From assembly GCA_036172245.1 (NCBI GenBank), contig JAYWIR010000037.1, forward strand, positions 806,001 through 870,000: 64,000 nucleotides of DNA. The letters run 5' to 3'. This stretch comes from Raillietiella orientalis. Lineage: Eukaryota. The position numbers and the translations under genes are program-made. The notes below the pieces were generated by a model. The model was not told the DNA's origin. It was given only the letters and a program-made list of their open reading frames with translations, and ran no database searches. Below, piece by piece: positions 31,782-61,887 of the stretch (the stretch's first letter is position 1; each line of letters starts with the position of its first letter).

Positions 31782-31823
31782 CGACGCGGGTTAAAGGTAC
31801 TAAAGTACCTTTAACCCGCGTCG
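31782..31823. repeat. Perfect 20-bp inverted repeat with 2-nt spacer
   Basis: CGACGCGGGTTAAAGGTACT-AA-AGTACCTTTAACCCGCGTCG. Confidence 0.95.
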
Positions 31824-32430
31824 GAGGGCATGTGGTTACGGTCTTTGTGTGAGGCACCTGGCGTTGCGAGTTCGAATACTCTGCAAGAATCGACGCAAAG
31901 AGTCCGTGCACATCATGGGTTTGAGTCCCACCCACGAGATAACTCTGCTCGGCCTACTTCCGGGAGCGCCTCCCAGTAGTGGTTCAAACTGTATGCCCCC
32001 GACGAGGTCCCAAACAATGGAAGTCGACCTCCGGGTTCCTTCCAAAAATCAAGTAGTGGGAGTTCCCCTCCGGTTGTGCATAGAAGCGGACCCCCTTCGA
32101 GGGGACCCTCCGTAGAGTAGGTGTGTCGCCATATCTCTAGAGTTCCAGAGAAGCGTGCCGTTTTCTTCGGGGAGAGCGCTATTCTGAATTTCGGAAGCTT
32201 CCCTTCGGGGTTCTCTTCAGAGGAGTAAACAAGAGCGGTTCCCTTGTGGGCTCCCTTCGAGAAAGAAAACATGGAGCGGACTCCTTCGGGGGTTCCTCCG
32301 GAGAGAGTAAGAAGGAGGATTCTCTTCCGGATTCCCTTCGGAGACAACCAGGGTTGGGAGGTTCCCTTCGAGATGCCTTCTCAGGAGTGAGAGGCGGTCC
32401 CCTCCCGGTATCTTGAAGAATTCACGCGTA
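31815..32430 (+). mobile_element. tRNA-headed SINE-like element with hairpin-module array (copy S2)
   Basis: B-box-like AGTTCGAATACT at 31869-31880; repeated GGA(T/C)TCCC-TTCG-GGGTTCCCTTC-type modules at ~32085-32380; ends TGAAGAATTCAC like S4. Confidence 0.65.
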
Positions 32431-32444
32431 CCCTAGGGTGGGGT

Positions 32445-33020
32445 GGGAACTGCAAAAGGTGCGGAGAAGCAGAAACACTCCCGCACCTGCTCTTGGACTG
32501 CAGTGTCCTCCAAGGACTGTGGCGAAGGCTGGCCTTAGCCTTCCTGCACCATGGGGACACCGCAAGAGACTTGATGCGCTGCTTCTTCACGGCAGGCGGG
32601 TGCTGTCATCGCAACGGTCTGTTGCACCCGCGCCATTGACAAGACCAACCGAGAGCTGGAGAAGCAGGCGATTCGTCGACAGGCCACCTGAATAGCCGAC
32701 GAGAACATGACGTCGGCTGCCGGTTGGTCTCATCTTCCAGAGGACATAAGGAACGAGATCTGCGGCATCCAACGCCGGTTTTAAAAGAAAGGAACGTCCG
32801 ACACCAAAGACCCCTGTCCCTTACCCCCCCCCCACACACACATATTTTTATTTATATTGTTTATACGTGTATTTGTGGTCCCTTTCCTCCCGTTCCGGAC
32901 TTTCGGATTTACCGACTTGCGTGTTGGGGAGCCCTCCCTTCGTTTTCCGTGTCCTTTGTCCGGGAACTCTGTTCCCGGATAGTTTAGAAATAAAAGCCTC
33001 GGCGCACCCGGGTGGGAAAC
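32445..33020 (+). mobile_element. 5'-truncated LINE 3' end (zf-RVT to terminal hairpin)
   Basis: NCKRCGEAETLPHLLLDCSVLQGLWRR...WSHLPEDIRNEICGIQRR; hairpin 32959-32979; AATAAA 32989-32994; CTCGG/CCGGG hairpin 32998-33012. Confidence 0.85.
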
Positions 33021-33720: not shown

Positions 33721-35012
33721 AATGGAAACGCCCTTGACGAAGTCGATGAGGGCGTCGCATCTGCTGCTGCTGTTGCTGCCGGGCTGAGCGGCTCACACAC
33801 GAGGATTTGGGATGCGCGCCATCCTTCCAGTCCATTTCGAAAACTGACGGGAATTCCTGCATTCTTTCTCACTTGTCATCTGGAGGATAGGAGGTCAAGG
33901 CGTGCGGCGGAACGCATGAATTCGTGGTGAGCAAATGGCAGTCCTCTGTGGAAGGTCGGTACAACTGAACTCAGCACACGTCCTTTCCCTGACCAGGGTA
34001 TGTATGGACTGATGAGAGTCGCTGCCATGCCTCGCTCCGTTAGACAGGGGGTCTGGAGCTGCCATCCCTAGACGATGCCTACAGTGCGATCCTACCATTG
34101 GACATTAAAAGCTGACAATCAGTCCACGCCCAGTGAGTGTCACCTCGGACGTATACCGATCCTTCGAGAGAGCTTTGCCAAAACCTAGGGATGCTTGAGA
34201 GTAGGAAGAGTTCGAAGAAGAGAGTCTCTCCTCTGTCTTCTTCCGGGATTCCAGTTTCGGTAAAAGTCTTGGGGGCTGGTTCTGTGGGATCCTGCTATGC
34301 TGAGAACGATGAGGTTTTGCATCGCAGGGCTTTCGGTGACGATGGAATGAAGAGTGCTCATACTCTTGTTCAGCATTCGGCTCACAAGGGACGAGATTCA
34401 CCACTAGGCACACAGACTCAGCTTTGCCTCTCGAGACTCTCTTCCGGAACACGCGTTTCTGGCTGTCGCCATCAGTTTCCCACTCTGCCACTCTGGGACA
34501 AAGAGATACCAATGATAAACAAGTTGGAGATGCACTACCCGGAAAAACACTCAAAAAGACGTTGAAGCGAAGAATTCACCAACACCGACGATGCAAATCC
34601 TTTTAAGTTCTTCCATTTTCTCTGCTTTCCTTCCAGTTTTTTTTTTTTTTTTTTTACTTTCAAGAAATGCTGAAGAACTTCTTAAGGGGAGCTCACTAAG
34701 CTCTTTAACAAAGCTGTACACGCCACCTGAGAGTGAGTGTTGACTCTTCAAGTTAGGGTTTAACCCCGGAGGAACCGCCTTATGAATCCGAGGAGGATCC
34801 GGAAGAAGGAGTTCGTTCCTTTTATTCTTGAGAGGGAGCCCTCCCTTGTTGTCTCCGAAGTGAATCCTTTTGCTCAGCATACGTCCTTTCCCCGACCAGG
34901 GTATGCATTAAGGTCCTTTCTGGCCTACTCTTCCTCGTTCTCTTCGGAGGGAACCGTTCCTTAGGGATCCCCAGAAGGGTGACTCCTCGTTTCTTCTCCA
35001 AAGGGAACTTCA

Positions 35013-35537
35013 GAGACCCCGAGTGCCTCTGAAGGACTTATGCGCTCCGCTTCGGGATGGCGGTCTCGGCCTCCTGACGCTGGAACGCTTGGAAATCCAG
35101 CTGCGAATGGCGCACCATGGCCATCGCAGCGAAGTTGTGGAGCACTCCTTGGTGCGTTCCGGCCCACCTCCTAGCCAGCCGTGTCTCCAGGACACAAGGA
35201 CTCGCGTCTTATCTTCTGTGCCCCGTTTGGAAGATCAGAAGATGCGACCTTCTCCTTGGACGCATGGCCACCCTGGCGAAGGGCAACGGCTGAATGATAT
35301 GCCGCCAACTCCTCCGCCTGGCTGGAGGAGACTGCTGACACGCTTGTTTGTTTTTTTTCTTTGTTTTTATTTTTCTTTTTGTTTTCTCCCCCATCCCCCT
35401 CCACTGCCGAGGAGCGTCACGCCGGGCTGCGTTCCGGCGTCCCGGCAGGTCCGGTGTAGTGTGGCCGTTAGTTGGGCCTTATACCACGTTCTTGTAGAGT
35501 TTTTAAAATAAACGCCCCGGGAGCACCCGGGTGAAAA
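35013..35537 (+). mobile_element. Internally deleted LINE fragment with complete 3'UTR
   Basis: DLCAPLRDGGLGLLTL post-thumb motif; T tract; structured UTR; AATAAA 35507-35512; CCCGGG-AGCA-CCCGGG 35516-35531. Confidence 0.8.
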
Positions 35538-35539
35538 CC

Positions 35540-36325
35540 CCGAGCGTCCTACCTTGAGGACTTTTGAAATGGGGCGAGCTGCTCGGCATCCAGACGGATG
35601 ACCTGAAGTGGCCCCCAGTGCTGGATGGATTCAGGATTCTTCTCCTGAAGTGGCAAGAGTCGGCGCTTCTGTTGTTGCATTGGGGTCTACCCTGCAACGC
35701 GTGCCGCTTCCACTGGACGCGGGGAAGAGTAAATCCTGAGTGTTCCAGGTGTGGGGAGCGGGAGTCCCTCCCCCACCTCCTAGTTGACTGCCCTGCCCTT
35801 CGGATTCTTTAGGATCGTCTTGGAACGGCCCTCGGGATACCGGTTGGCGGCAACCCCAGAGGCGTTTACAGACTTCTCTTCGTGCGGGACGCCCTGCAGC
35901 CAGCTGCAGCCCTGGCAGCACTTTGCTGCATCCGTGGGATTGTGGCGGCCTGGAGTGAAGCCGAAGATGAAGATGCCAACGAGAGGGACGTCATTCCGTA
36001 TGCTGCTCGCTTCCTGCAGAGAGCTACCGGATGGCTCCAGCTGGGTGGAATGAAGGACCACGAGGGCATTCCGCAAAGGATTGACCCTTCTCCCAGTGGC
36101 CAGTGATCCTTCCCGGCCCACCAAAGTCTTTTTTTTTGTCTTATTGTTTTATTTTTCTTTTTGTTTTTTCCTCATCCCCTTCCACTGCCGAGGAGAGTTA
36201 CGCTGGTCCGCGTCCCGGCGTCCCGGCAGGTCCGACGAAATGTTGGCCGTTATTGGGGCCTTGTACCACGTTTTGTAATGACCTTAAGTTGAGTTTGAAA
36301 TAAACGTCCCGGTGTATCCGGGTGG
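35540..36325 (+). mobile_element. 5'-truncated LINE 3' end (zf-RVT to terminal hairpin)
   Basis: KWQESALLLLHWGLPCNACRFHWTRGRVNPECSRCGERESLPHLLVDCPAL...AALCCIRG; AATAAA 36299-36304; CCCGG/CCGGG 36308-36322. Confidence 0.9.
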
Positions 36326-36622
36326 CATCTCCGAAGGGAACCTGCAAGGGAAGCATTCCTCTGAAGAGTACCCCGTAATGACACTTCCAAATTTTCTCTG
36401 AAAGGCCGCTCCTGAAGAAAGCAGCACACTTCTTCACACTCCGGAGAGGTGTCACCCCATTAGCTCCCTGTTACGAGATGGAGGGTTCTCCTCCGAGAAG
36501 TGAGAAGGACGGCTCCATCTTCATAACCGGAGAAGCACGGCTCGTTGATTCCTGGAAGCACTCCGGAGGATCAACTTCCAATCTCGGCCAGTGAGTGGGG
36601 AAATCCGGCTTCCATCAATGCC

Positions 36623-37120
36623 TGAGAACGCTTTGCTGTGACCCTCGGAACCCGCGGCGGCAACGCCAAAGAGGTTCTGAAGCGCCTCTTCCTGCCCGAC
36701 GCCTTCATGCCGGCCGCATCCCTGGCAGAACTGTGCTGCCTACGTGGGATGGTGGCCACATAGAGCCACTCTAGAAGAGGCCAGAACGATAGGGACACCT
36801 TCTATTTTGCTGTGCTCTTCATGAGAACAGCGTCAAGATGGCCCATCGGGAAACCATAAAACAGGAACTTGCCGGCATCCATACAAGGATGCAGAGGACG
36901 CCCTCCACCAAACAGTAATCCCTTCCCGAATGCTCCCTCCCCCATTTTTAGACCGAATTTTTTTTTTTTTGTTTGTATTTCCTTCCCCTTTGCTGCCGAA
37001 GCGAACTCTGCTGGCCTGCGTGACAAATCCCGGCAGGTTTCTTTTCGTATCGATAAGTAACGTGGCAGGATCAAACGTCCTGCCACAGACATGTAGGTTA
37101 GAAATAAACGCCCCGGCGTG
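36623..37120 (+). mobile_element. 5'-truncated LINE insertion with candidate 12-bp target-site duplication
   Basis: LKRLFLPDAFMPAASLAELCCLRG...ELAGIHTRMQRTP; flanked by TCCATCAATGCC (36611-36622) and TCAATCAGTGCC (37121-37132). Confidence 0.8.
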
Positions 37121-39699
37121 TCAATCAGTGCCGCTCCCGAAGCCTGTAGACCAACCAGCGTCATCCTGCGGACGGGAAACTCGAAACCCACAGCTCTCTT
37201 GTTTCTTCTGTTTATCCCACGTGGGGATTCGAACCTGCAGCGCTTGGTACCACGCGCGGAGACCATAGCCACACGGCCGCTAGCACGGGAATGGAACCCT
37301 ACTGGTGCAGTCCTTTTTTTTCTCCTTTTTTCTCTCGAGAGGGAGAAAAAGAGATAATAAATGTACAAATAAAAGGAAGATGGGACTTTGGTATTAAACT
37401 CTCCTTATGGTTCAGCTTTGAAGCAGAAAGCCGGCGATCTGCGACTTGACAACGCTGCGGCAAGGAGTGTGACGGCAATCCGGGGCCACTTCGTCGAGTC
37501 CTGCAAGACATCCCGAGCGATTGGCGCGGTAAGGTTTTTTCGGGAGCACCTCCAGGGAGGCAGCCCAGATTGCTGCCGCTTTCTGTTGCCAGGTATTCCA
37601 GTTCATGGTGCGGCAAGAAATCAGAGGGTGGATTTTCGAGAAGTGAGGTCAGTTATCTCAACGGGAAGCTGAGTCCCGGCATCCCGTGGCGGCCCCATGG
37701 CAGTTGCGAGAGCAGTCCTTTGCTGTCGGCGCAACGCCAAAGGATGAGACGCGCAGCTGCACACCACAGTGAGGTCCACAATTCGGCACACAGGGCTAGT
37801 TCTCGGGACTGCATCTCTTGCAGCGTCAGGATACAACCGAAAGCGGCGCAACCAGTAGTGGTAAGGACATCGCAAAGTGATGGTCCATTCGTACCACATT
37901 AGAATGACGTTGCCATGGTTCTTATCATGAAAAACCATGCGAAGGTCGATTAGGATCGTTCCTCAAGTCCGTTTGCTGTGTTTCTTTCTTTTACGGTAAG
38001 ATGAAGGCTCCTGCCAAAGCCAGCCATCGGATGAATGGAGGCGAACCATCTGCAGCCTCCTCCGGAAAGACGCTGTCTCCTTCCAGATCTGCCACCTTCC
38101 TCAAGAACTCCAAGAACAGGACAAGAGGAAGGGCTGCCCCGGCGACGGCACCATGTAGACGCAAGAGGGGCAGTCCAGCAGTCGTTTGGCTTCTCACGAG
38201 CAGCGCTCTCGAGATGGGATGGGCTGACGCTCGAAGACCCTCCTCCATGGTCATCCTTTGTGTCTGCTGCCATGTGAGATTCCTCCTGGTGCGTGCCTGC
38301 GAACTGGAAATTCCGGTGTGAATAGGCGATGGTTCGGGGCAGAATAGACACTAAGGCGACCCCGCTGCAAATCCTACCCTTCCGTCCTTTCCCGGTAGAT
38401 CCGCCGGCAGCGTGGGTTCTCGCCGCTGTGCTTCATCCAGTGCCGTGATGTCACGAGGAGTTTCTGGCTCATGAACAACACGAAAGTCGTCCCTTAAAAT
38501 AAATTCCTGCAGGGACGAGAGCTCGTATTGCTAATCCTACTCTTCCTCATCATCCCATAGTCCGAAGCGGTGTGTCTGGACCGCTTCAGACACCATCGGT
38601 CTCCCTCGATGTAGGGGATGCGAGCAGTTCGCCCAAAGTGACGAACTGCGCCATGAGATGCTCGGTCGCATGGGCGCAGGAACGCTTTTCAGCCCGTCCC
38701 ATCGTCTCAAAACCTGGGGCTCAAAAAACGCCTGGATTGCGGGGAAGTTCGCAAGCATCGACCGGATTCCCGTCGACGCACGAAACTTCAGCAACCCTTC
38801 GAATGCCTCGGAGCCGTATGGGAAGCCTCGGGGGAAAACGAAAGACGCACGCAAGGGGCGTACAGCCCAAGCTGGTTGCCGGGCGATGCCACCTAGATCT
38901 CGGGCAGCCTCCTGATCATCGATCATGAATGGAGCGGGGAGGAAAGAGCGAAGGCAAACTCGTGCGCAGCACAGAACGAGCTCTGCGAGGCACGTAAAGG
39001 GTTCAGGAACTTTGCTCCAGCAGCCCATTTGCTTGCGACCCTTCTGAGTCCAGGGAACTCGCGGGTCCGAACGGAGACCCACATCCGGAGCAGGTTTTCT
39101 TCAGGAAGGGGGAAACGCCCCCTCTCGGGAATCCACTGCTTGGGTCTGAAAGAGTGGCGTTCTTCTCCAGAACTCATCCAGCATCTGGATAGAAGCACCG
39201 CAACTTCACCATAGTTCAGACGGGAAAGGCATTAGAGGGAAGCCTCAGCGTCCACGGAAATCTCAACTAAGGGGGCGACTGGAATGGGAAGGACGCGCCT
39301 TAAATCTTTCGCGGCATCCTGCAAGGGGTGACTAGGGAACCCAGTCCCGGTGATGGACTGGTCCGGAGCTGGTGGGGAGCGTGCGAGCAGAAAGAAACAC
39401 TCTAGTGGGCACAGTGGGTCGACACTGGGGCCGACCTGCAGGAGGGGAGATCGACCGGATTCCTCTTCTGCTTTCTTTCCGCAAACTTACCGCGGTTCGG
39501 ACGGGCTTTCCCCTAGCGACAGGCAGTGTTTACTCCTCCCTCGCAGACCTTGCAGAGCCCGTCCGGAGGGATCCCTTCCAGAGCCCGAGTCCGGTGCCAT
39601 GAGAAAGGCCGCCGTGGTGAAACATCAGTTCACCCTGGCGGCAAATCCGACCACATATTGAAAAAAGGATGCGGCGAAATCCCGTAGCAGAGTGTCGTC

Positions 39700-44899: not shown

Positions 44900-45405
44900 A
44901 TGGCTGCCCTCACGGGCACCTCTCCAGTTGTTTAAAGGAGCGGACTCCCCCTGTTGCGGGGTGAACCCTCCTAGTCGTCGCCTCTTCACAGAGTGCAAGG
45001 AAGCAAGCGAGAGCGATTCCTTGCGGGAAGCTGCAGCGCCCCTTCTGAGTTTCGGAAGCGTCCCTTCGGGGTTCTCTTCAGAGTGAACAGGAGCGATTCC
45101 CTTGCGGGTTCCCTCCGAAGAAATTCCTACAAGAGGATCCTTTCCGGGTTCCCTTCGGAGAAGTTGAAATGGAGAGGACCACCCCTCTCCCAGGGGGTGT
45201 CCCTCCGGAGAGAATGAGGAAGGAGATTCCCTTCGGGGTTCCCCTTCTTAGACAACCAGGGTTGGAAGTGCGATCCCCCCCCGTCCGGGGGGGATCCCTC
45301 CCCAAGCGTGAGAGGAACGGACTCCGAGCCCTTCCTGGATTCATAGGGCGGATCCCCATCCCGGAGTGCACCCTATCCTGAAGAATTACACTGAGGAATT
45401 ACACG
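44900..45405 (+). mobile_element. 5'-truncated SINE-like copy S4 (hairpin-module array)
   Basis: Collinear with 32050-32430; about 7 hairpin modules; ends in two 13-nt units TGA(A/G)GAATTACAC. Confidence 0.65.
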
Positions 45406-48400
45406 CCCCCCTGCGGGTTGCCGCGGACGGAGAGGCGTGGAAACAAAACAGTGTGTTTAATGTTTAAAAAGAGCCACTTGAGCCGCGAGGCACGCAACCG
45501 GCTCTTGAGGTTACTTAGCGAACCAAAAAAAAAAAAAAAAGAATGGCTTGGTGAGGGGGGGAAGGGAGGGAATTGAATGCGAGATGATCTTCAGACTTTG
45601 GTTCCAAGACTCTCGTGACTTCTGGCGAAGTGCGGGACTCCCACTTGGGTTCACGGACGGGACCCTATGTTCAGGGATCAAGAACCTGAGATGATGACAA
45701 ACTCAGATGCCCTTCCAAGAAGAGAAGAGAAGATTGCATTTCTACAGAGGTTTTCAGTTCAACAAGCTCTTCTCGAACACCTGCGCACAGGCGCCTTGCG
45801 CAACTGACCAGCGACTCCCTTCCGTCCCTCCCTTAACCATCTCTTTCGTATCTTCACGAGCATACAGGAAAAATGGATGCATTCTCCCAAGAGACGTGAG
45901 TCGCCGGGAAGAATCCCTTGCTGCAGCTTCGCTGCCCTTTAGGCCGCTATCGAAACACCGCTCGTGCGTCTGCTCTGAAGTCAGCCTCTCCCGCAGCCAC
46001 ACAAGTATGAAATCGCTGACTACGGCCGCAAACATTCCGCCCAGTGAGTGCCACTTGAGAGCAAGAACGATTTCTCTGGAGGTGGCCGAGAGTGGCGACT
46101 CCCCAGAGACGGCATGACTCCTCGGAGACTGTCACACGTAGATCTTTAACAAAACGCTGTGAGACTCTGAAGGAGATATGACGATGTCCCTTCGAGGGCT
46201 GTCGGGACTGCTTGGGATCATCCTTCAAAATGCTTTCTCAGAAAAAAAGTGGTCTTGGAGTTGGACGGCAACAAGCGTCCACAATGACCGTGGTCTTTCC
46301 AGGAAAAATGGGAATGCCTGCGGAAGATTTTACGACCCTCTCACCGGAAACAAGGAAGGAAGGAAAAAGAAAATGTTTGTCCACACAAAAAGGAAAAGAG
46401 TCTCGCTTTAAAGCCTCTAGCAGTTCTTCCTCTCATTAGCGCACGCGATGTCTATTCACCGGGTGGTCTTCCCCTGGTAAGAGAATGCACCCTGTGCAAC
46501 CCAAAGTCCATTCTTTCCTCGTCTCGGAGTGCAAAGGCACAAGTCATAGGGTCATACTTTTAGCAAGAAAGTGCTCGGCCCTTTTTTTAATGCCTCCCAG
46601 CATCCTATGCAGCGCCTGAGAGCCGATTAGGCTCTCCAGCCGCTTGAAAGAGGAATTCGCATCTACGAGTCACCAAGCGCTATCGTGATAACGGTAGTTC
46701 GGATTACGGATGCCACTGCCAGATCTCGTTCAGTCCAGGGAGCAAAGAATGACAGGGAAACGTCCTTCGGGAGAGCAAAGAATGCATAAGACTGCATGGG
46801 ACACCAGGAGCACAAATGCTCGAGGAAAATTGGCACCTCTTTTCCTGCCACCGAAGGGACTACGACATTTCGTTTCTAGTCCAGACGCGGAACTTGCCTT
46901 AGTCCCTTGGGAATTCCAGTAGCTGTCTCGGCTTCTCCCGCTGATGCCGCTGTTCTAGGCCAGACGACCTCACGCCTCTGCCTTCTGCCCAAAAACCCTG
47001 CTACCGGCTGCTCCGGCTCATTTGGGAGCACGGGTGTCCTTTGCAATGAAGAGGAATGGTGAGCAGCTACGATCCGGTCAGATTTAGATGCCCAAAGGTG
47101 GAGGCTGCATCCAGTAAAGCTAAACAAGCCTCTGGTGTCTCTTGTGGGGAATTCTGCGAGCAGGCAGCTACAAGAGAAAGGCATTTGTTGTTGTTTTTGT
47201 CCGTTCGAGTGGAGAAAGGGAGTCACCACCCTCATTTTGTTCCCTCCTTCCCGATCGAGCGACGTGGCATCAGTCCATCTCTCTCTCACTTTTTTTTTTT
47301 GTAAATCGAAGATGCACACCTCGTCTCAGGTTGTGGCAGCAGCGTGACTCCTCAGGGACTGTCGACTGCCACGTCGGGAACGACCTCGAGTGCAGGCTCA
47401 TTCAGGAGCCATGAAATTACAAGGTGAACCGACTCGGTACTTCCGTAAGGTACCTTCTTCAAAGATGCTCGCTAACAAATGCGATGGCGCTGTGAGTCCA
47501 AGGGAAGAGGAACGACCAGGAGATGTACGTGATGAAAAGAGCAGGAAGATTTCCGATGCTTCGCAGATTGTTCACCGCCGGAAGGGTACCGATTTCAGCA
47601 TGGACATGCACCTAAGGAAACCAGTGACCTCCTGCACTACATTCGGGTTGATCCGTGGCGAAAACAGGGTAAAACTGGAACGCATTCGCTGAGCCGAGAC
47701 GCTTGGTTGGAAAGATAGATCAGATAAAGAAACGGTGCAACACCGAGGCACAAAAGCTTCAATTCTTGATCAGAAATTCAGGAGGATGTGCATGGGATAG
47801 CTAAAATACGCCGCGTATTCGAATGGCTATAACGAGCATCCAAGAAACAGCAGGAGATTTTCGAGTGGGCAATGATATGAGACTTCACAGTTTCATCTCT
47901 CTCAAGTGTAATTGGATTAAACGCGCGATCTTAGAGACGAAGGTAAATCAGGGTGGTTTTAATCAAGAAAAGGAAGTGTTGATTAAGCAATTTGCCAAGA
48001 GGCTTAGCAGCAGCTGACAATCCCTTTTTTAAGGGAAACATAATGCAGCAGCGAGAGAAAAGGAGCAGAGATTGAGAGGCGCATGCCACATTCATCAAAG
48101 ACAACTTTCAAAAACAAGAGAAACAATGCTTCAAGTGACATATCGTTCAAGAATTCTTATCGACGAGTCAACAAAGGACTCCAGATGGCAAAACAGATTT
48201 TAGCCCAGCAGCATTCCGACGTGTAGTTTTCTAAAACAACTAGAGTCTGATGATATTTCAAAACCGGCCGTTTTGATGACCCTAGTATCTACTGATGCTG
48301 ACATCTCCAACAGCTTCATCAACTAGGCATTGTTCTATTTAGAGAGCTACAAAGACTCTGATTAGAGGGCTATATCTGGAAAGTTCGATTCTTTTCAGAA

Positions 48401-51269
48401 GAAAAATTCTTACAGCTCTCCAAATAACCAGGTTCTCCAGGGGCCAACAAATTTTCTTCTTGCGCTTCCTTTTTCCCCAAACTCAGTCTGTTCCGATTAG
48501 ATTCCCCGGTTTTCCTTGCAACAGTGTCAAAACCAATTTTCGGGACTATAAATCCGAAAATTGGTTCGAGCTAATTAGGAAGTTTTTCACCAAGAGCAAA
48601 CATACCTGAGCATCTTTCGTACATGTAAGAGGAACTTAAAGCCTTCCATGGCAATGTGTGCGTGTATTTCATATTTGTGTGCGTTTCTAAGGCGCCATTC
48701 GAGGTTTGCACAGCCTCTTTGTGCATAGGAGCATCAGCTACGAGGAGCTTTGTCGCTCTTAATCTCAGACGAGATGCTGCATGATCCTCTTTTCGAGTTC
48801 GAGCTGAGTTTCAAATTCTTTGTTTTCCTACCTTAACCTTAATCTATGTGCTCATGAATTTTAAGTGTGGTAACATGTATGCAGGCAATGTTTTCCGATT
48901 TGCATTCCAGAAATCAACTGGAAATCAGCACTTTATGAGTGTTCCGTAGAGGATTCTGTGCAGGTCGCGAAATTACCAAGGAGACCCTATTCCTTCACTC
49001 TGGCTATGATCCCATGGAAAAGAATTGGATCCTTATTGGAAAAAAAAAAAACACCTTTTAAAGTTCACGATATCTTTCGTATTGTAGAAGACCATGAGTG
49101 TGGGAAGTATCAGCCAGCATACAGCTAGGACCGCTTTTGCAATTTCGAATTAAAAGATAGGAAATATGATAATAATAGGAGAAGAAAAAATCAACACGAT
49201 TCCTCGACTTCCCCCCACCACCACCCAAAAAAAACCTCGCATGTAGAATATAGCAATAAAAGTCATTTCTGTGTTCGCAGATCATCACTCATTCCTTAAT
49301 TCTCGTGTTCTTGAGTGCATCCGTGAACAGTTTTTGGGTGCCTAATGCGTATCCAGTTTGAAAGCTAAAAATTTGCCAACTCCAGGTGAATTCACGAGAA
49401 GGAAAATCTCTTATAAAAGCACACCCTATTTTTGTATACTTTCTCTGTATGCACGCATTTAGCTTTGGGGATTCGATGCATTCGGGGGAGCAGCTGAAAC
49501 ACCTGAATACAGCCGGGTGCAAAATTTGTCCGTCTTGCTTCGCATAATTTTCGTGTCTACCTGATATTGGTCCTGAGCTACCAATTCAAGGAAGATGCTG
49601 AAGTAACAAATTCATCTTCATGCATGCTGCAAAGTTTTCACAACCGTTTTGGAAACTTCTTAGGAACCTTCACGCCGGCCTCAAATCTCTTGCATATTTC
49701 CGTCGTCCCGTTCTAAGATCGCCACTGTTGGAATAGACCAGATGGAAACTTCATAACAAAAATCAGTATCTATATGGCTTATGCGGTGTATTCCCAATAG
49801 CCGAATCCCTGTGCTTATACTTGGTTCGAACACTTTCTTCCCAACACCGTATGCTCTAATTATTTCGAAATTGCTGAATAAAACGATCTTGTAATTATTT
49901 ACCACTGCTGGATGATTATTAGCAACTTGATTTCAAATGATAGATGGGAAAAGATTTCGCAAATGGCAACACACCGCCGTGCATTTCTTTTCGTCCTTTT
50001 CGAGGGCCGTAATTGCTGTGCTTTCACCAGGACTTTGCGCCAGAAAGCCATGAATTAGTCCAACACGCCAATTCACCTCAAGTTGGAGATGGAACGATTT
50101 CCGCACGGACGTCTTCATTCACTGGCAGTTTTCTGTTTGGTCTCGAATCCAACCTTTGGAACCTCTTAGCCATTTTACTGAGCAACCTTTCTTAAAGCCT
50201 CGCATCTTATTTTACAGTGAAAATTCAATTGGGAGTACCTATTAATGACCATGAATTCCGCGAGTAGAGTCCTTGAGTAATAGTTCGCTCTGTCCCCGAG
50301 TACTTACTGTTCATGATAATACGAAACCGATGAAACATTCTGGACACCGGTGGATTTGCTTCACTAACCACGAGATTTACGAGAACAAACTTTGAAAAGC
50401 TTCACAGAATGGTCCAAAACAAGACTTCTGCATCTTCCAGCTTTGGCATGACCCTGTTGAGCTTCACTGTTCCGAATAGTAAAAGATGGCATTCTTTTAA
50501 GAAGGAAACCACTATCGAGTAGAGTGGTGACGTTAAATGGCGTTGGGAGATGATAGATCTTCCTACAATATCAATGATACTACCTATAGGAATGCAACAC
50601 ATGCCTATCCACTTAAAACAACGCCCCTTGAGATGACACCTCGATCTCTGACATAACAATCCCAAATTTGGGCAAATTCGACTTCATCTGCAATTGCCTA
50701 TGATTACGCAAAGGATTACGTCGAAAACGAAAAAATAAAATACAAGTAATTAGAGTATACATTTGGAAAGAAAACGTTCGAACCAAGTGGAAGCACAAAT
50801 ATGTAAAAAAGGTCACTTTCTTCTTTTCCACTTAAATATCTGGAAAAAAATATAGCTGATCTAAAGTATAAAGCAAATCTGCCATTTTGCAACAGTATTT
50901 TCCCTTAATTCCTGATGATTAGTTTGTTTTGTTTCTTCTTCCTACAATGTAAATTACTTATTTTCCTCAAGTTGGATCTCGTTAACATGCTTTCCATCTG
51001 CAATCGGTAATTCGACTTATTTTGAACGAAAGTACTGCAGCATCATGAAATTTATCGGAAAAAATGAACGCAATCGGAAATTTGCAAATCAAAATGAAGA
51101 ACAAGCAAAACATCTAATCCTACTGTAATATGTAGTACCCAACTCGCTGCCCATATTTTTCGGACAGTTGTTGTCCAGTTGCAAACGGAAACTTGTCTTT
51201 TGATCTTTGTATTTATTTTGCACAAAATTTGTCAGTGCGCACGCTAAAAGCGTAGAAACCGCTTAATAT

Positions 51270-51575
51270 ATGCTGGGAAAGTATTCACAGATGCCAGTCA
51301 AGTGTATTTCTCCTAATTAATTGATCATGATGCTGCATTAATAAGATGTATGCCTACTACTGGATTAATAAATGCTGGGAAAGTATTCACAGATGCCAGT
51401 CAAGTGTATTTCTCCTAATTAATTGATCATGATGCTGCATTAATAAGATGTATGCCTACTACTGGATTAATAAATGCTGGGAAAGTATTCACAGATGCCA
51501 GTCAAGTGTATTTCTCCTAATTAATTGATCATGATGCTGCATTAATAAGATGTATGCCTACTACTGGATTAATAA
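51270..51575. repeat. Exact tandem repeat, 3 x 102 bp
   Basis: Unit ATGCTGGGAAAGTATTCACAG...CTGGATTAATAA starts at 51270, 51372 and 51474; copies look identical. Confidence 0.95.
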
Positions 51576-59668: not shown

Positions 59669-61887
59669 CTACGAGAATGTTTGTATCGACTGTGCTTCTT
59701 CACCTTCCTTCTTTTTCCTGAGTTTTTTCCTTCGTCTGTCTATGCTAGCAACTTCAGCCTTTATCTCAAGATATGCACAACGAAGTTCTGCCAACCTTTT
59801 CTGTATGGCTGCAATACGTTCTGAAGAATCAAGATCAGCACCTAAATTGCCAATTTGTAAGCTCAGTGTAAAATACTTTCCTCAATTCGTTAGCATACCG
59901 AAATCTGTAGCAAAATTATACTTTGAACGAAATCTTCCCCAATTTGATAAATGGACACCTTCCACTTTGCCAGTATTGCTCCTATGCACTTCTTCTTCTT
60001 CATAGCTTCCAGAAATTCGGTGTTCTCGAGTAGTGGCTCGCGACTTCGGTTTTGTTTCACTTATTTTTCTCCAGGTTTTCCTTCTTTTTCGTTTTGATGA
60101 CTGTGGCATATCATTATCGATTCGAGTTCTTTTTGTGCAGGATTGAACACCAGTTTCATTTTCTAATACGGAAATGGTATGTTACACATTTTTGAGAACA
60201 TTTATTTGTTTTACCTTCAGGCTTTCCTTCACCCAAGCTTTCATGTTCAGATGATGACTGAGATGATTTAGGACTGCTATTATCTCTTTCTAAGTTAAAC
60301 AACTTCATATCAGCATCCCTGAAGTATATCACTCATGCAACAAATTATGAGGCCCAAGACTTACGGATCAGGAGATTCAACAGCTGAAATTGTAGAGTGG
60401 GGAGTGTCATTGGAGCTTGTCTCAGTTACTGCCATTTCCACATTCTGTGCCTGGGATATCTGTTCCATGTCACACTTTCCTTTCTGTTCTGCTTCTGACA
60501 CTGAAGAAAATGGTGTCTCCAATCTGAGCACAGTTGCTTCAGAAAGACTTTTCAGATTCATTGTAGGGGAATACACAGGACTATTTGGAATAATTTCTTC
60601 ACATAAGAAAGATTTCACAGAGTCTTCCTTGATTGTAAGCTGAGATTTTCCAGCTGTCATGGAGTTTGGTTCCCCCCCTGCACAGGTAGAATTTGTATTT
60701 TGGGATTCTGCAACATTCCAACAATCAAAACTACTCATCTTCGATGGTGAGGAATTTTCTTTTTTGTCATCAAGTTCTAATTGAGCTGAATCAGGAGATC
60801 TGGTACCATGTGACACTTCTGGAACTCCATTACCAATCAAAGAATCCTCTTTATTACTACTTTCAACTTCTGAGTCCTCTTCTTCTATGAATTCTTTACT
60901 TTTTGTTTTTCCTTTACGCTGCTTTCTTTTCTCTCGTCGATGCATCGGTTTCACTTCATTCATATCCACAGAATCTGAACTATCACTAAGGGGTACAAGG
61001 GGTAAGGGTTCCTCATTCATTTTTTGTAGTTCCTCACATGTCTGGGCAAGGACCAATTGGATTTCGTCAGAAAGGGATTTTGCATGATCGGAATTAAAAT
61101 GTTCACAAGAATGACTGGAGCCATCTTCAGACTGCAAGGATGTCAGTAAAACACTAATGCCACTAGTCTCCACCAGATGCCTGTTTTGAGCCTCAGTATG
61201 TATAGGGGATTTATCTAAAGTGTTCTCCATCTTTATGTCCATATGAAGATCTGGATTTTGATCAGTATCTTCTTCTACCTTTTGTATTGGTTGTAAAACA
61301 GATTTTACATCATCTTTATCTTCCTGAAACTCATAAACATCCACACCTGTCTTGATCTCTTGCAACTGAGCTAAAGAGCGCAACTGGTTCTTCGCTTTAT
61401 CGAGTCCTTTCATTTCAGATCGAATCTGAATCATATCAATATCTTTACCCTTTGCATTGGCCACAATGCTTGTGTTACTATTTTCAGCCTCTACACTGCG
61501 ATCAGCATTCCCTTTATCAGAAGCAAAATTCCTTTTTGCATTTCTGCGAGTTCGAGCAGACTGTACATCTGGATGTGAATGCAAACTCGGATTTGTAAAT
61601 GAAGTTTTAACATTCACACTTGAGTCCTCTACATTATGTTGTAAATCAAGTGAATGATTGTCTGCTATAATATTCCTTTCAACGTTTTCAGCATCAGTTT
61701 CGCAATTTAAGGAGCTCAAGTTGGGATCTCGACTAAAGCGGCTTACTGACTGCCTGCATGATCTTTTCCGATCTGTTGGAAATGCTACTTCATTGGAATA
61801 GGTAGAAGCTCCATTATTTTCTCGCTCTCTCTTCCCATTATTGCTAGACCGCCTCAACCTTGATGATCTTGTCATACTTTGCCTGCT
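59669..61887 (-). CDS. ARID4B: AT-rich interactive domain protein 4 (ARID4A/B, hat-trick)-like; 3' exons only, 5' part upstream or beyond the window
   Basis: Exons 61887-60365, 60318-60215, 60162-59899 and 59841-59669 join in frame through 46, 52 and 57 nt GT-AG introns. C-terminus KYNF..D..ERIAAIQKRLAELRCAYLEIKAEVASIDRRRKKLRKK matches the ARID4 C-terminal coiled coil; LCEEIIPNSP motif also present. A/B paralogue cannot be assigned. Confidence 0.85.

Follow-up and report, generated by a model that had tools for sequence, protein, structure and literature searches.

The hairpin-bearing repeats in a 64-kb stretch of Raillietiella orientalis DNA (the whole of which is hereafter called the window) probably belong to a long tRNA-related SINE family that is parasitic on the L1/Tx1-type LINEs of its host, inserts by two routes and exchanges sequence with these LINEs. 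Source copies would be transcribed by Pol III from an internal A/B-box head, and their body may have grown as a unit of ~40 nt was duplicated in tandem, gained and lost; since this unit joins a block of purines to one of pyrimidines, the hairpins follow from its build. By the first route, RNA ending in a hairpin, a T run and poly(A) would be inserted by target-primed reverse transcription at A-rich sites, leaving short target-site duplications. By the second, RNA or cDNA ending just after one short motif would be joined without duplication, sometimes with fold-backs, most likely at existing breaks and without an endonuclease. Template switching between SINE and LINE RNA would then account for chimeras, including a LINE lineage that carries the hairpin array in its 3' UTR. 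We regard the family as a well-sampled example of SINE modular evolution, with an unusually long body, two insertion signatures and a probable SINE-to-LINE capture that spread, and its two end classes offer a natural experiment on the frequency at which non-LTR machinery inserts independently of its endonuclease.

A dispersed tRNA-headed family

As a check of copy number, an exact 25-nt module pattern was searched in the 210-Mb assembly and gave 401 matches compared to 0 for a control, which puts the family, dispersed over many contigs, at 401 or more copies. When positions 32050–32430 of the window were used as the query (best 40 of 2383 candidates scored), 30 loci were returned, 22 of which matched both ends of the copy at 31813, with one sharp start at ~31813. 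A head search of the loci retrieved distinguished 104 elements: 35 of subfamily B, 24 of subfamily A, three small groups (3, 3 and 2 elements) and 37 singletons, the last of which, mostly old copies, are summarised in consensus C. Subfamily lengths were ~740 bp (A), ~880 bp (C) and ~1080 bp with tail (B). Module number differed among the subfamilies, modules having been both gained and lost, as expected for a tandem-derived body. Overall, the hundreds of dispersed copies, the sharp 5' start, the 64% identity of the head to a tRNA of the host and the target-site duplications seen at one of the end types agreed with the first-pass annotation of this DNA, which had proposed a tRNA-headed SINE-like family. 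No relatives were found in the indexed genomes or in metagenome contigs, and an Rfam search gave no family match for the element.

The head was aligned with 59 tRNA genes of the host, drawn from 60 retrieved out of 62 matches (of 8885 candidates, 63 were scored). Consensus C was identical to tRNA-Arg(CCT) in 48 of 75 columns, above 300/300 shuffles, and the subfamily B head agreed with this match; the subfamily A head had a marginal tRNA score and was best with Gly. As judged from these alignments, the tRNA isotype of the head is uncertain and unstable between subfamilies. A second tRNA-like unit, downstream of the first, matched in 41 of 64 columns (10/300 shuffles as good), and in A and B this unit was not above shuffles. 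ARAGORN and Rfam detected no tRNA in the element. One of the 59 host tRNA genes (L227–L286) was given a CTA anticodon by ARAGORN.

SINEBase defines a SINE as an interspersed, non-tandem repeat of <1 kb and a tRNA relationship as ≥60% identity to a tRNA over ≥60 nt (PMC3531059, in its available part). Subfamilies A and C lie within this length and B slightly over it; consensus C reaches the tRNA identity and A is marginal. As for non-autonomy, the element is non-coding, its tailed copies have poly(A) and duplications, and it forms chimeras with L1/Tx1-type LINEs, with no common 3' sequence. Like the tRNA-derived SINEs described in the same source, the family has a head, a body and a tail, at least 100 dispersed copies and internal duplications; the CHRS SINE listed there repeats a 20-nt motif more than 10 times. 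The 175 families catalogued in the available text measure 75–662 nt, in contrast to 740–1080 bp here, a comparison of length and description, and, unlike in the catalogued tRNA-derived SINEs, the body is an array of a 40-nt palindromic unit and the tail, where there is one, consists of a hairpin and poly(A). The Vhc subdomain of mollusc and arthropod SINEs (PMC4758252) likewise forms a ~40-nt hairpin with an internal loop in the SINE body, but in the accessible part of that report it is single-copy and conserved across phyla, whereas about ten repeats occur here. A literature search, with most subscription papers outside its reach, found no SINE with an array of UUCG hairpins.

The copy at 31813 and its relatives in the window

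All four copies named in the first-pass annotation are present in the window and are related by alignment to the subfamily consensus sequences, although the length given for the element was too short relative to that of a full subfamily A element. The features, in window positions, are as follows.

31782–31823, no strand: 5' junction inverted repeat of snap-back type, perfect over 19 bp, taking in the first bases of the element
31813–31890, plus: tRNA-like head; an A-box-like motif, and a B-box near 31868–31878 with one mismatch
31891–31940, plus: further tRNA-like unit, weaker than the first and containing a B-box-like motif, from the tRNA alignment
32019–32382, plus: array of about ten bulged-hairpin modules, from sequence and folding
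32383–32446, plus: post-array body, cut ~95 nt short of the usual subfamily A end
32447–33019, plus: 5'-truncated 3' end of an L1/Tx1-type LINE, ending in AATAAA, a hairpin and AAA
12758–13421, minus: old copy of subfamily C that has both head and array, 75–79% identical to consensus C
34587–37290, minus: old copy in four pieces, 71–77% identical to consensus C
44906–45541, plus: headless subfamily B fragment, 95% identical to consensus B, ending at an internal A run

The SINE copy at ~31813–32447 (plus strand) is 91% identical to the subfamily A consensus and 3'-cut, stopping at ~32447 instead of running to the full ~740 bp. No target-site duplication was seen at its 5' junction; 5' inversions comparable to the one found there occur at locus L012 (15 nt) and locus L002. 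At ~32447 the SINE is joined to the LINE segment, which has a zinc-knuckle-like translation, on the same strand and through 4 nt common to both (GAAC). The copy is a decayed chimera: no SINE remainder was found 3' of the LINE segment, which leaves a SINE–LINE chimera or an insertion with loss. The B-box head ascribed to the element by the first-pass annotation exists in this copy, its one mismatch being to the quoted motif, but the copy at 44906 has no head.

The old copy at 34587–37290 is interrupted by three opposite-strand inserts ending in AATAAA and a CCC-hairpin, as LINE-type 3' ends do, and itself terminates at the tail-less cut point described below. The first of these inserts has an imperfect ~12 bp duplication, and opposite-strand LINE ends likewise lie at SINE copies at loci L002, L004 and L091. 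The fragment at 44906–45541 is bordered by an imperfect ~12 bp duplication and represents a third end type, at an internal A run.

Two end types and two probable insertion routes

Tailed ends, found in subfamily B and in some old copies, have a long hairpin followed by a T run and poly(A), and tail-less ends are cut 0–5 nt past the motif AGGATTTCCATCG. Among 57 ends found through this motif (a count that covers motif-bearing copies only, with tail-to-tail pairs counted from both sides), 18 keep the hairpin and 39 are tail-less, all 39 stopping within that interval. The two types differed in their flanks. In a set of 46 complete elements, target-site duplications were present at 8/13 tailed compared to 1/33 tail-less copies (p=4e-5; mismatched-pair controls, 10/150 and 0/150), and an A-rich 5' flank at 10/13 compared to 5/33. 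The duplications at tailed copies measured 8–17 bp. Subfamily A was almost entirely tail-less (20/20 copies with the motif), a search for target-site duplications on its copies found none, and no consensus of SINE target sites was seen. Genome-wide, there were 164 exact matches to the motif and 76 to the motif plus tail (49 of them with the same G), which is consistent with a large tail-less share, and tail-less copies make up about half or more of the family. The 401 exact module matches relative to 164 for the shorter 3' motif indicate that many copies lack this motif or carry an altered form of it.

Tail-less junctions include fold-backs and tail-to-tail pairs. Pairs of SINEs tail to tail, often of differing subfamilies and joined at or near the cut point, were observed at L008, L012, L014 and L120/L121; at the near-identical loci L029 and L030 (G000:C43), a copy of another subfamily, inverted and with an internal deletion, comes after a SINE copy. 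Two other causes of the tail-less ends were considered and rejected. Later insertions were not seen at the junctions, 0/39 of which had a LINE 3' end and 1/39 a displaced tail within 1 kb, in a search with low sensitivity to old LINEs. A ribozyme at the cut site, considered on the model of HDV topology, was set aside, since folding of the tail gave a plain hairpin.

We infer that the tail-less route is endonuclease-free. Tailless retropseudogenes (PMC5322556) similarly have 3' ends at defined positions and no A tail, theirs lying near loops and with short target complementarity, but in the available part of that study they are flanked by target-site duplications, whereas 32 of 33 tail-less copies here are without them; the copies described here therefore differ. 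Endonuclease-independent L1 insertion (PMC1920257) is likewise a route without an endonuclease signature; in the accessible text it is an alternative for L1 itself, whereas the second SINE route is frequent and tied to one RNA position.

Tail-less copies could instead have been made by a second autonomous element, R2-like or of another duplication-free clade, that recognises the small stem-loop (5-bp stem, 7-nt loop) into which the motif folds by itself. Such an element would explain why subfamily A is nearly all tail-less, and elements that we take to be R2-like, from their motifs, occur in the genome. Stringent LINEs, moreover, usually recognise stem-loops, according to the available part of one source (PMC3747384). 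We nevertheless think this unlikely, as no autonomous element ending in the motif was found among 30 of the 164 motif matches or among 50 RT loci, and as the ends are ragged over 0–5 nt, matching the lost tail more often than chance suggests.

Host LINEs and probable capture of the array

The reading that we prefer, of a SINE dependent on L1/Tx1-type LINEs, was followed up on the LINE side (3358 first-look RT candidates, best 150 scored). The genome contains many LINEs, many of them with long open frames in tandem arrays. Those examined encode an endonuclease and an RT in ORF2 and a zinc-knuckle ORF1, have 3' ends made of AATAAA, a hairpin and a short A run, and have, among solved structures, human L1 ORF2p as their nearest match; their placement in the L1 superfamily is supported by the encoded domains and by this structural comparison. 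The label Tx1 is our assumption from features such as the zinc-knuckle ORF1. Among 50 RT loci, no partner LINE sharing the SINE 3' end was found; the terminal hairpin of the SINE is like LINE 3' ends in its shape and has a similar loop, but shows no sequence homology to them beyond this. The first-pass annotation had raised the alternative that the repeat is the 5' UTR of a LINE, and this was excluded for the LINEs examined, the sole match among the 50 RT loci being an opposite-strand copy beyond the LINE 3' end. One match of the array within a 3' UTR was recorded among these loci, at L052.

Head-to-tail arrays of L1/Tx1-type LINEs, ~5.6 kb apart, were seen at L072–L084 and L089 (G000:C150, C139, C71, C114, C53, C33 and C26); many of these LINEs have an open ORF2 of ~1200 aa, and they end in AATAAA, a CCCC/GGGG hairpin and a short A run, not in long poly(A). 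At L087 (G000:C81:68001-78000), R2-like elements with a restriction-like endonuclease motif were observed, with a related element at C30 (L085–L086). The sequence beside the elements at L087 is presumably 28S rRNA.

In a near full-length LINE at G000:C27, the array lies between the ORF2 stop, which it follows directly, and the AATAAA and hairpin of the LINE itself. In total, ~415 bp of array formed a LINE 3' UTR at 8/30 junction-search loci (C27, C42, C19, C104, C7 and three repeats in C189); in the C189 repeats only the last ORF2 codons precede the array. The array segment has shared ends, at ~B positions 349 and 763, and is closest to subfamily B (83–91% of matched columns), and the closest sister LINEs have a short UTR with the same flanks and without the array. 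On grounds of parsimony, a single transfer from the SINE to the LINE, with later spread of the recombinant, is the most likely history. At L157–L160 (G000:C189), the array-bearing LINE end was also seen after a different reading frame, in three repeats, one 1486-aa frame running from ORF1 into ORF2.

Crocodilian SINEU and Tx1-Mar (PMC4494074) provide a parallel, in that Tx1-clade LINEs move SINEs, a module is common to LINE and SINE, and elements are nested in other repeats; what is shared there, in the part of the study available, is an snRNA-derived 5' head, and the target is specific, whereas here the shared part is an internal array within the LINE 3' UTR and no consensus of SINE targets was seen. 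Module exchange by template switching, as proposed here, is also described for LINE-derived SINE bodies (PMC5786205) and for L1 chimeras with other RNAs (bioRxiv 10.1101/2025.02.02.635956). Unlike in the accessible portions of these two reports, the transfer was most likely from SINE to LINE, the middle of the 3' UTR was replaced, and the recombinant spread.

Folding and conservation of the hairpin array

Each module is built of an outer GGAG/CTCC-type stem, a C bulge and an inner stem of a C run and a G run. The first-pass annotation had counted 6–8 modules at ~40–45 nt; the repeat array is real, but it has about ten modules spaced 30–43 nt apart, only the last six at ~41 nt. Both hairpins that it had quoted were located in the sequence at their positions, and three of the cUUCGg loops it had pointed to are true C(UUCG)G loops of the 31813 copy (modules at 32165, 32203 and 32284), whereas a fourth CTTCGG, at 32336, is part of a stem or linker. 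Compared to dinucleotide shuffles, the consensus arrays of A (z=-2.1) and B (z=-3.6) folded better, and the array of the 31813 copy (32085–32392) was not above shuffles (z=+0.14).

Across copies, substitution rates in stems and loops were 6.2% and 7.6% in subfamily A and 4.9% and 4.9% in subfamily B, five modules being poorly delimited in this comparison. In the best conserved two-module block, covariation was 0.111 compared to 0.113 for shuffles (56 sequences, that is, 57 minus one with a long insertion; old copies were the well-aligned 23 of 38). Because stems were as variable as loops and covariation equalled that of shuffles, we conclude that inserted copies, the 31813 copy included, decay neutrally. 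The hairpins show no clear sign of selective retention. Conservation of module pairing, on which the functional proposal of the first-pass annotation (a scaffold, decoy or small-RNA precursor) had been staked, was thus not observed, and with stems decaying like loops, covariation not above the control and the 31813 copy a decayed chimera, that proposal is not supported.

A role of the array in the source elements themselves is a separate matter, and has some, if small, probability: the array would be under selection as a multivalent surface that binds proteins (LINE ORF1p/ORF2p, for example, or an RNA-binding protein of the host) and raises retrotransposition, and the LINE that captured it would have gained the same benefit. 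The better-than-shuffled folding of the consensus arrays is consistent with this, as are one 25-nt module that is identical in the A, B and C consensus sequences and the spread of the array-bearing LINE to at least six separate places. Two-sided Watson–Crick swaps between consensus sequences numbered three for B vs A and two for C vs B, but most lie upstream of or within the first module, and among C vs A double changes 0 pairs were kept and 3 broken. Lineage-shared changes tended to retain pairing more often than singletons (21/46 vs 125/395), a trend that was non-significant (p=0.07) and weaker without homopolymer runs (17/39 vs 113/352, p=0.16). The lack of covariation in the best conserved block, an equally good fold of the subfamily B array on the antisense strand, and an array no better conserved than the head in old copies argue against such selection. 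The three swaps between B and A and the lineage-shared trend leave room for weak selection on the source RNA, which the hairpins may help a little. The hairpin array alone is no evidence of host function. An excess of G-U over A-C in subfamily B (165/3243 vs 79/2974) was considered as a sign of sense-strand selection and rejected, as it was gone once homopolymer runs were removed.

An antisense match between the motif and ORF2

About 110 nt ahead of its stop, LINE ORF2 has codons for P-M-E-I-L to which the 13-nt motif is antisense, with 13 contiguous pairs (one G-U in the main LINE family, an exact complement in several others). This match, found after the fact, would allow the SINE RNA to dock on LINE mRNA by antisense pairing, which would tether it to new ORF2p and fix the tail-less end point. 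The predicted duplex, at -27.7 kcal/mol, was equalled by 0/100 shuffles, such a match arose in 12/2000 codon-order shuffles (~0.6% chance), and the cuts fall 0–5 nt beyond the last paired base. However, the duplex ranked 8 of 132 windows along the LINE, whose other strand gave -26.7; the codons are common ones, 1051/2000 synonymous resamples keeping the match; and the stem-loop of the motif could alone set the end point. We therefore judge docking to be improbable. If true, it would reveal a new way for SINEs to get round the preference of the LINE protein for its own RNA, and a literature search, with most subscription papers outside its reach, found no SINE–LINE RNA pairing. A joint reading, in which the SINE hijacks the LINE via pairing of the 13-nt motif with ORF2, tail-less insertion proceeds from the duplex edge, and the array is a selected multivalent surface and hence was captured as a LINE 3' UTR, appears to us quite doubtful as well.

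A dedicated host non-coding RNA gene family acting as scaffold, decoy or small-RNA precursor, to which the regular modules with stable tetraloops and the Pol III-type head might point, is very improbable given hundreds of dispersed, decaying copies with retroposition signatures, a 31813 copy that folds like shuffles, stems that decay neutrally and no match in Rfam.

Other features of the window

The first 48 kb of the window consist of GC-rich nested repeats and the remainder is AT-rich. A Pfam search of 15 ORFs from the window gave no family above the cut-off; the frames in question include a low-complexity open frame of 508 aa in the AT-rich part (60361–61887, minus strand), which is probably a large host exon. 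At 51263–51575, also in the AT-rich region, three near-identical 102-bp copies lie in tandem.
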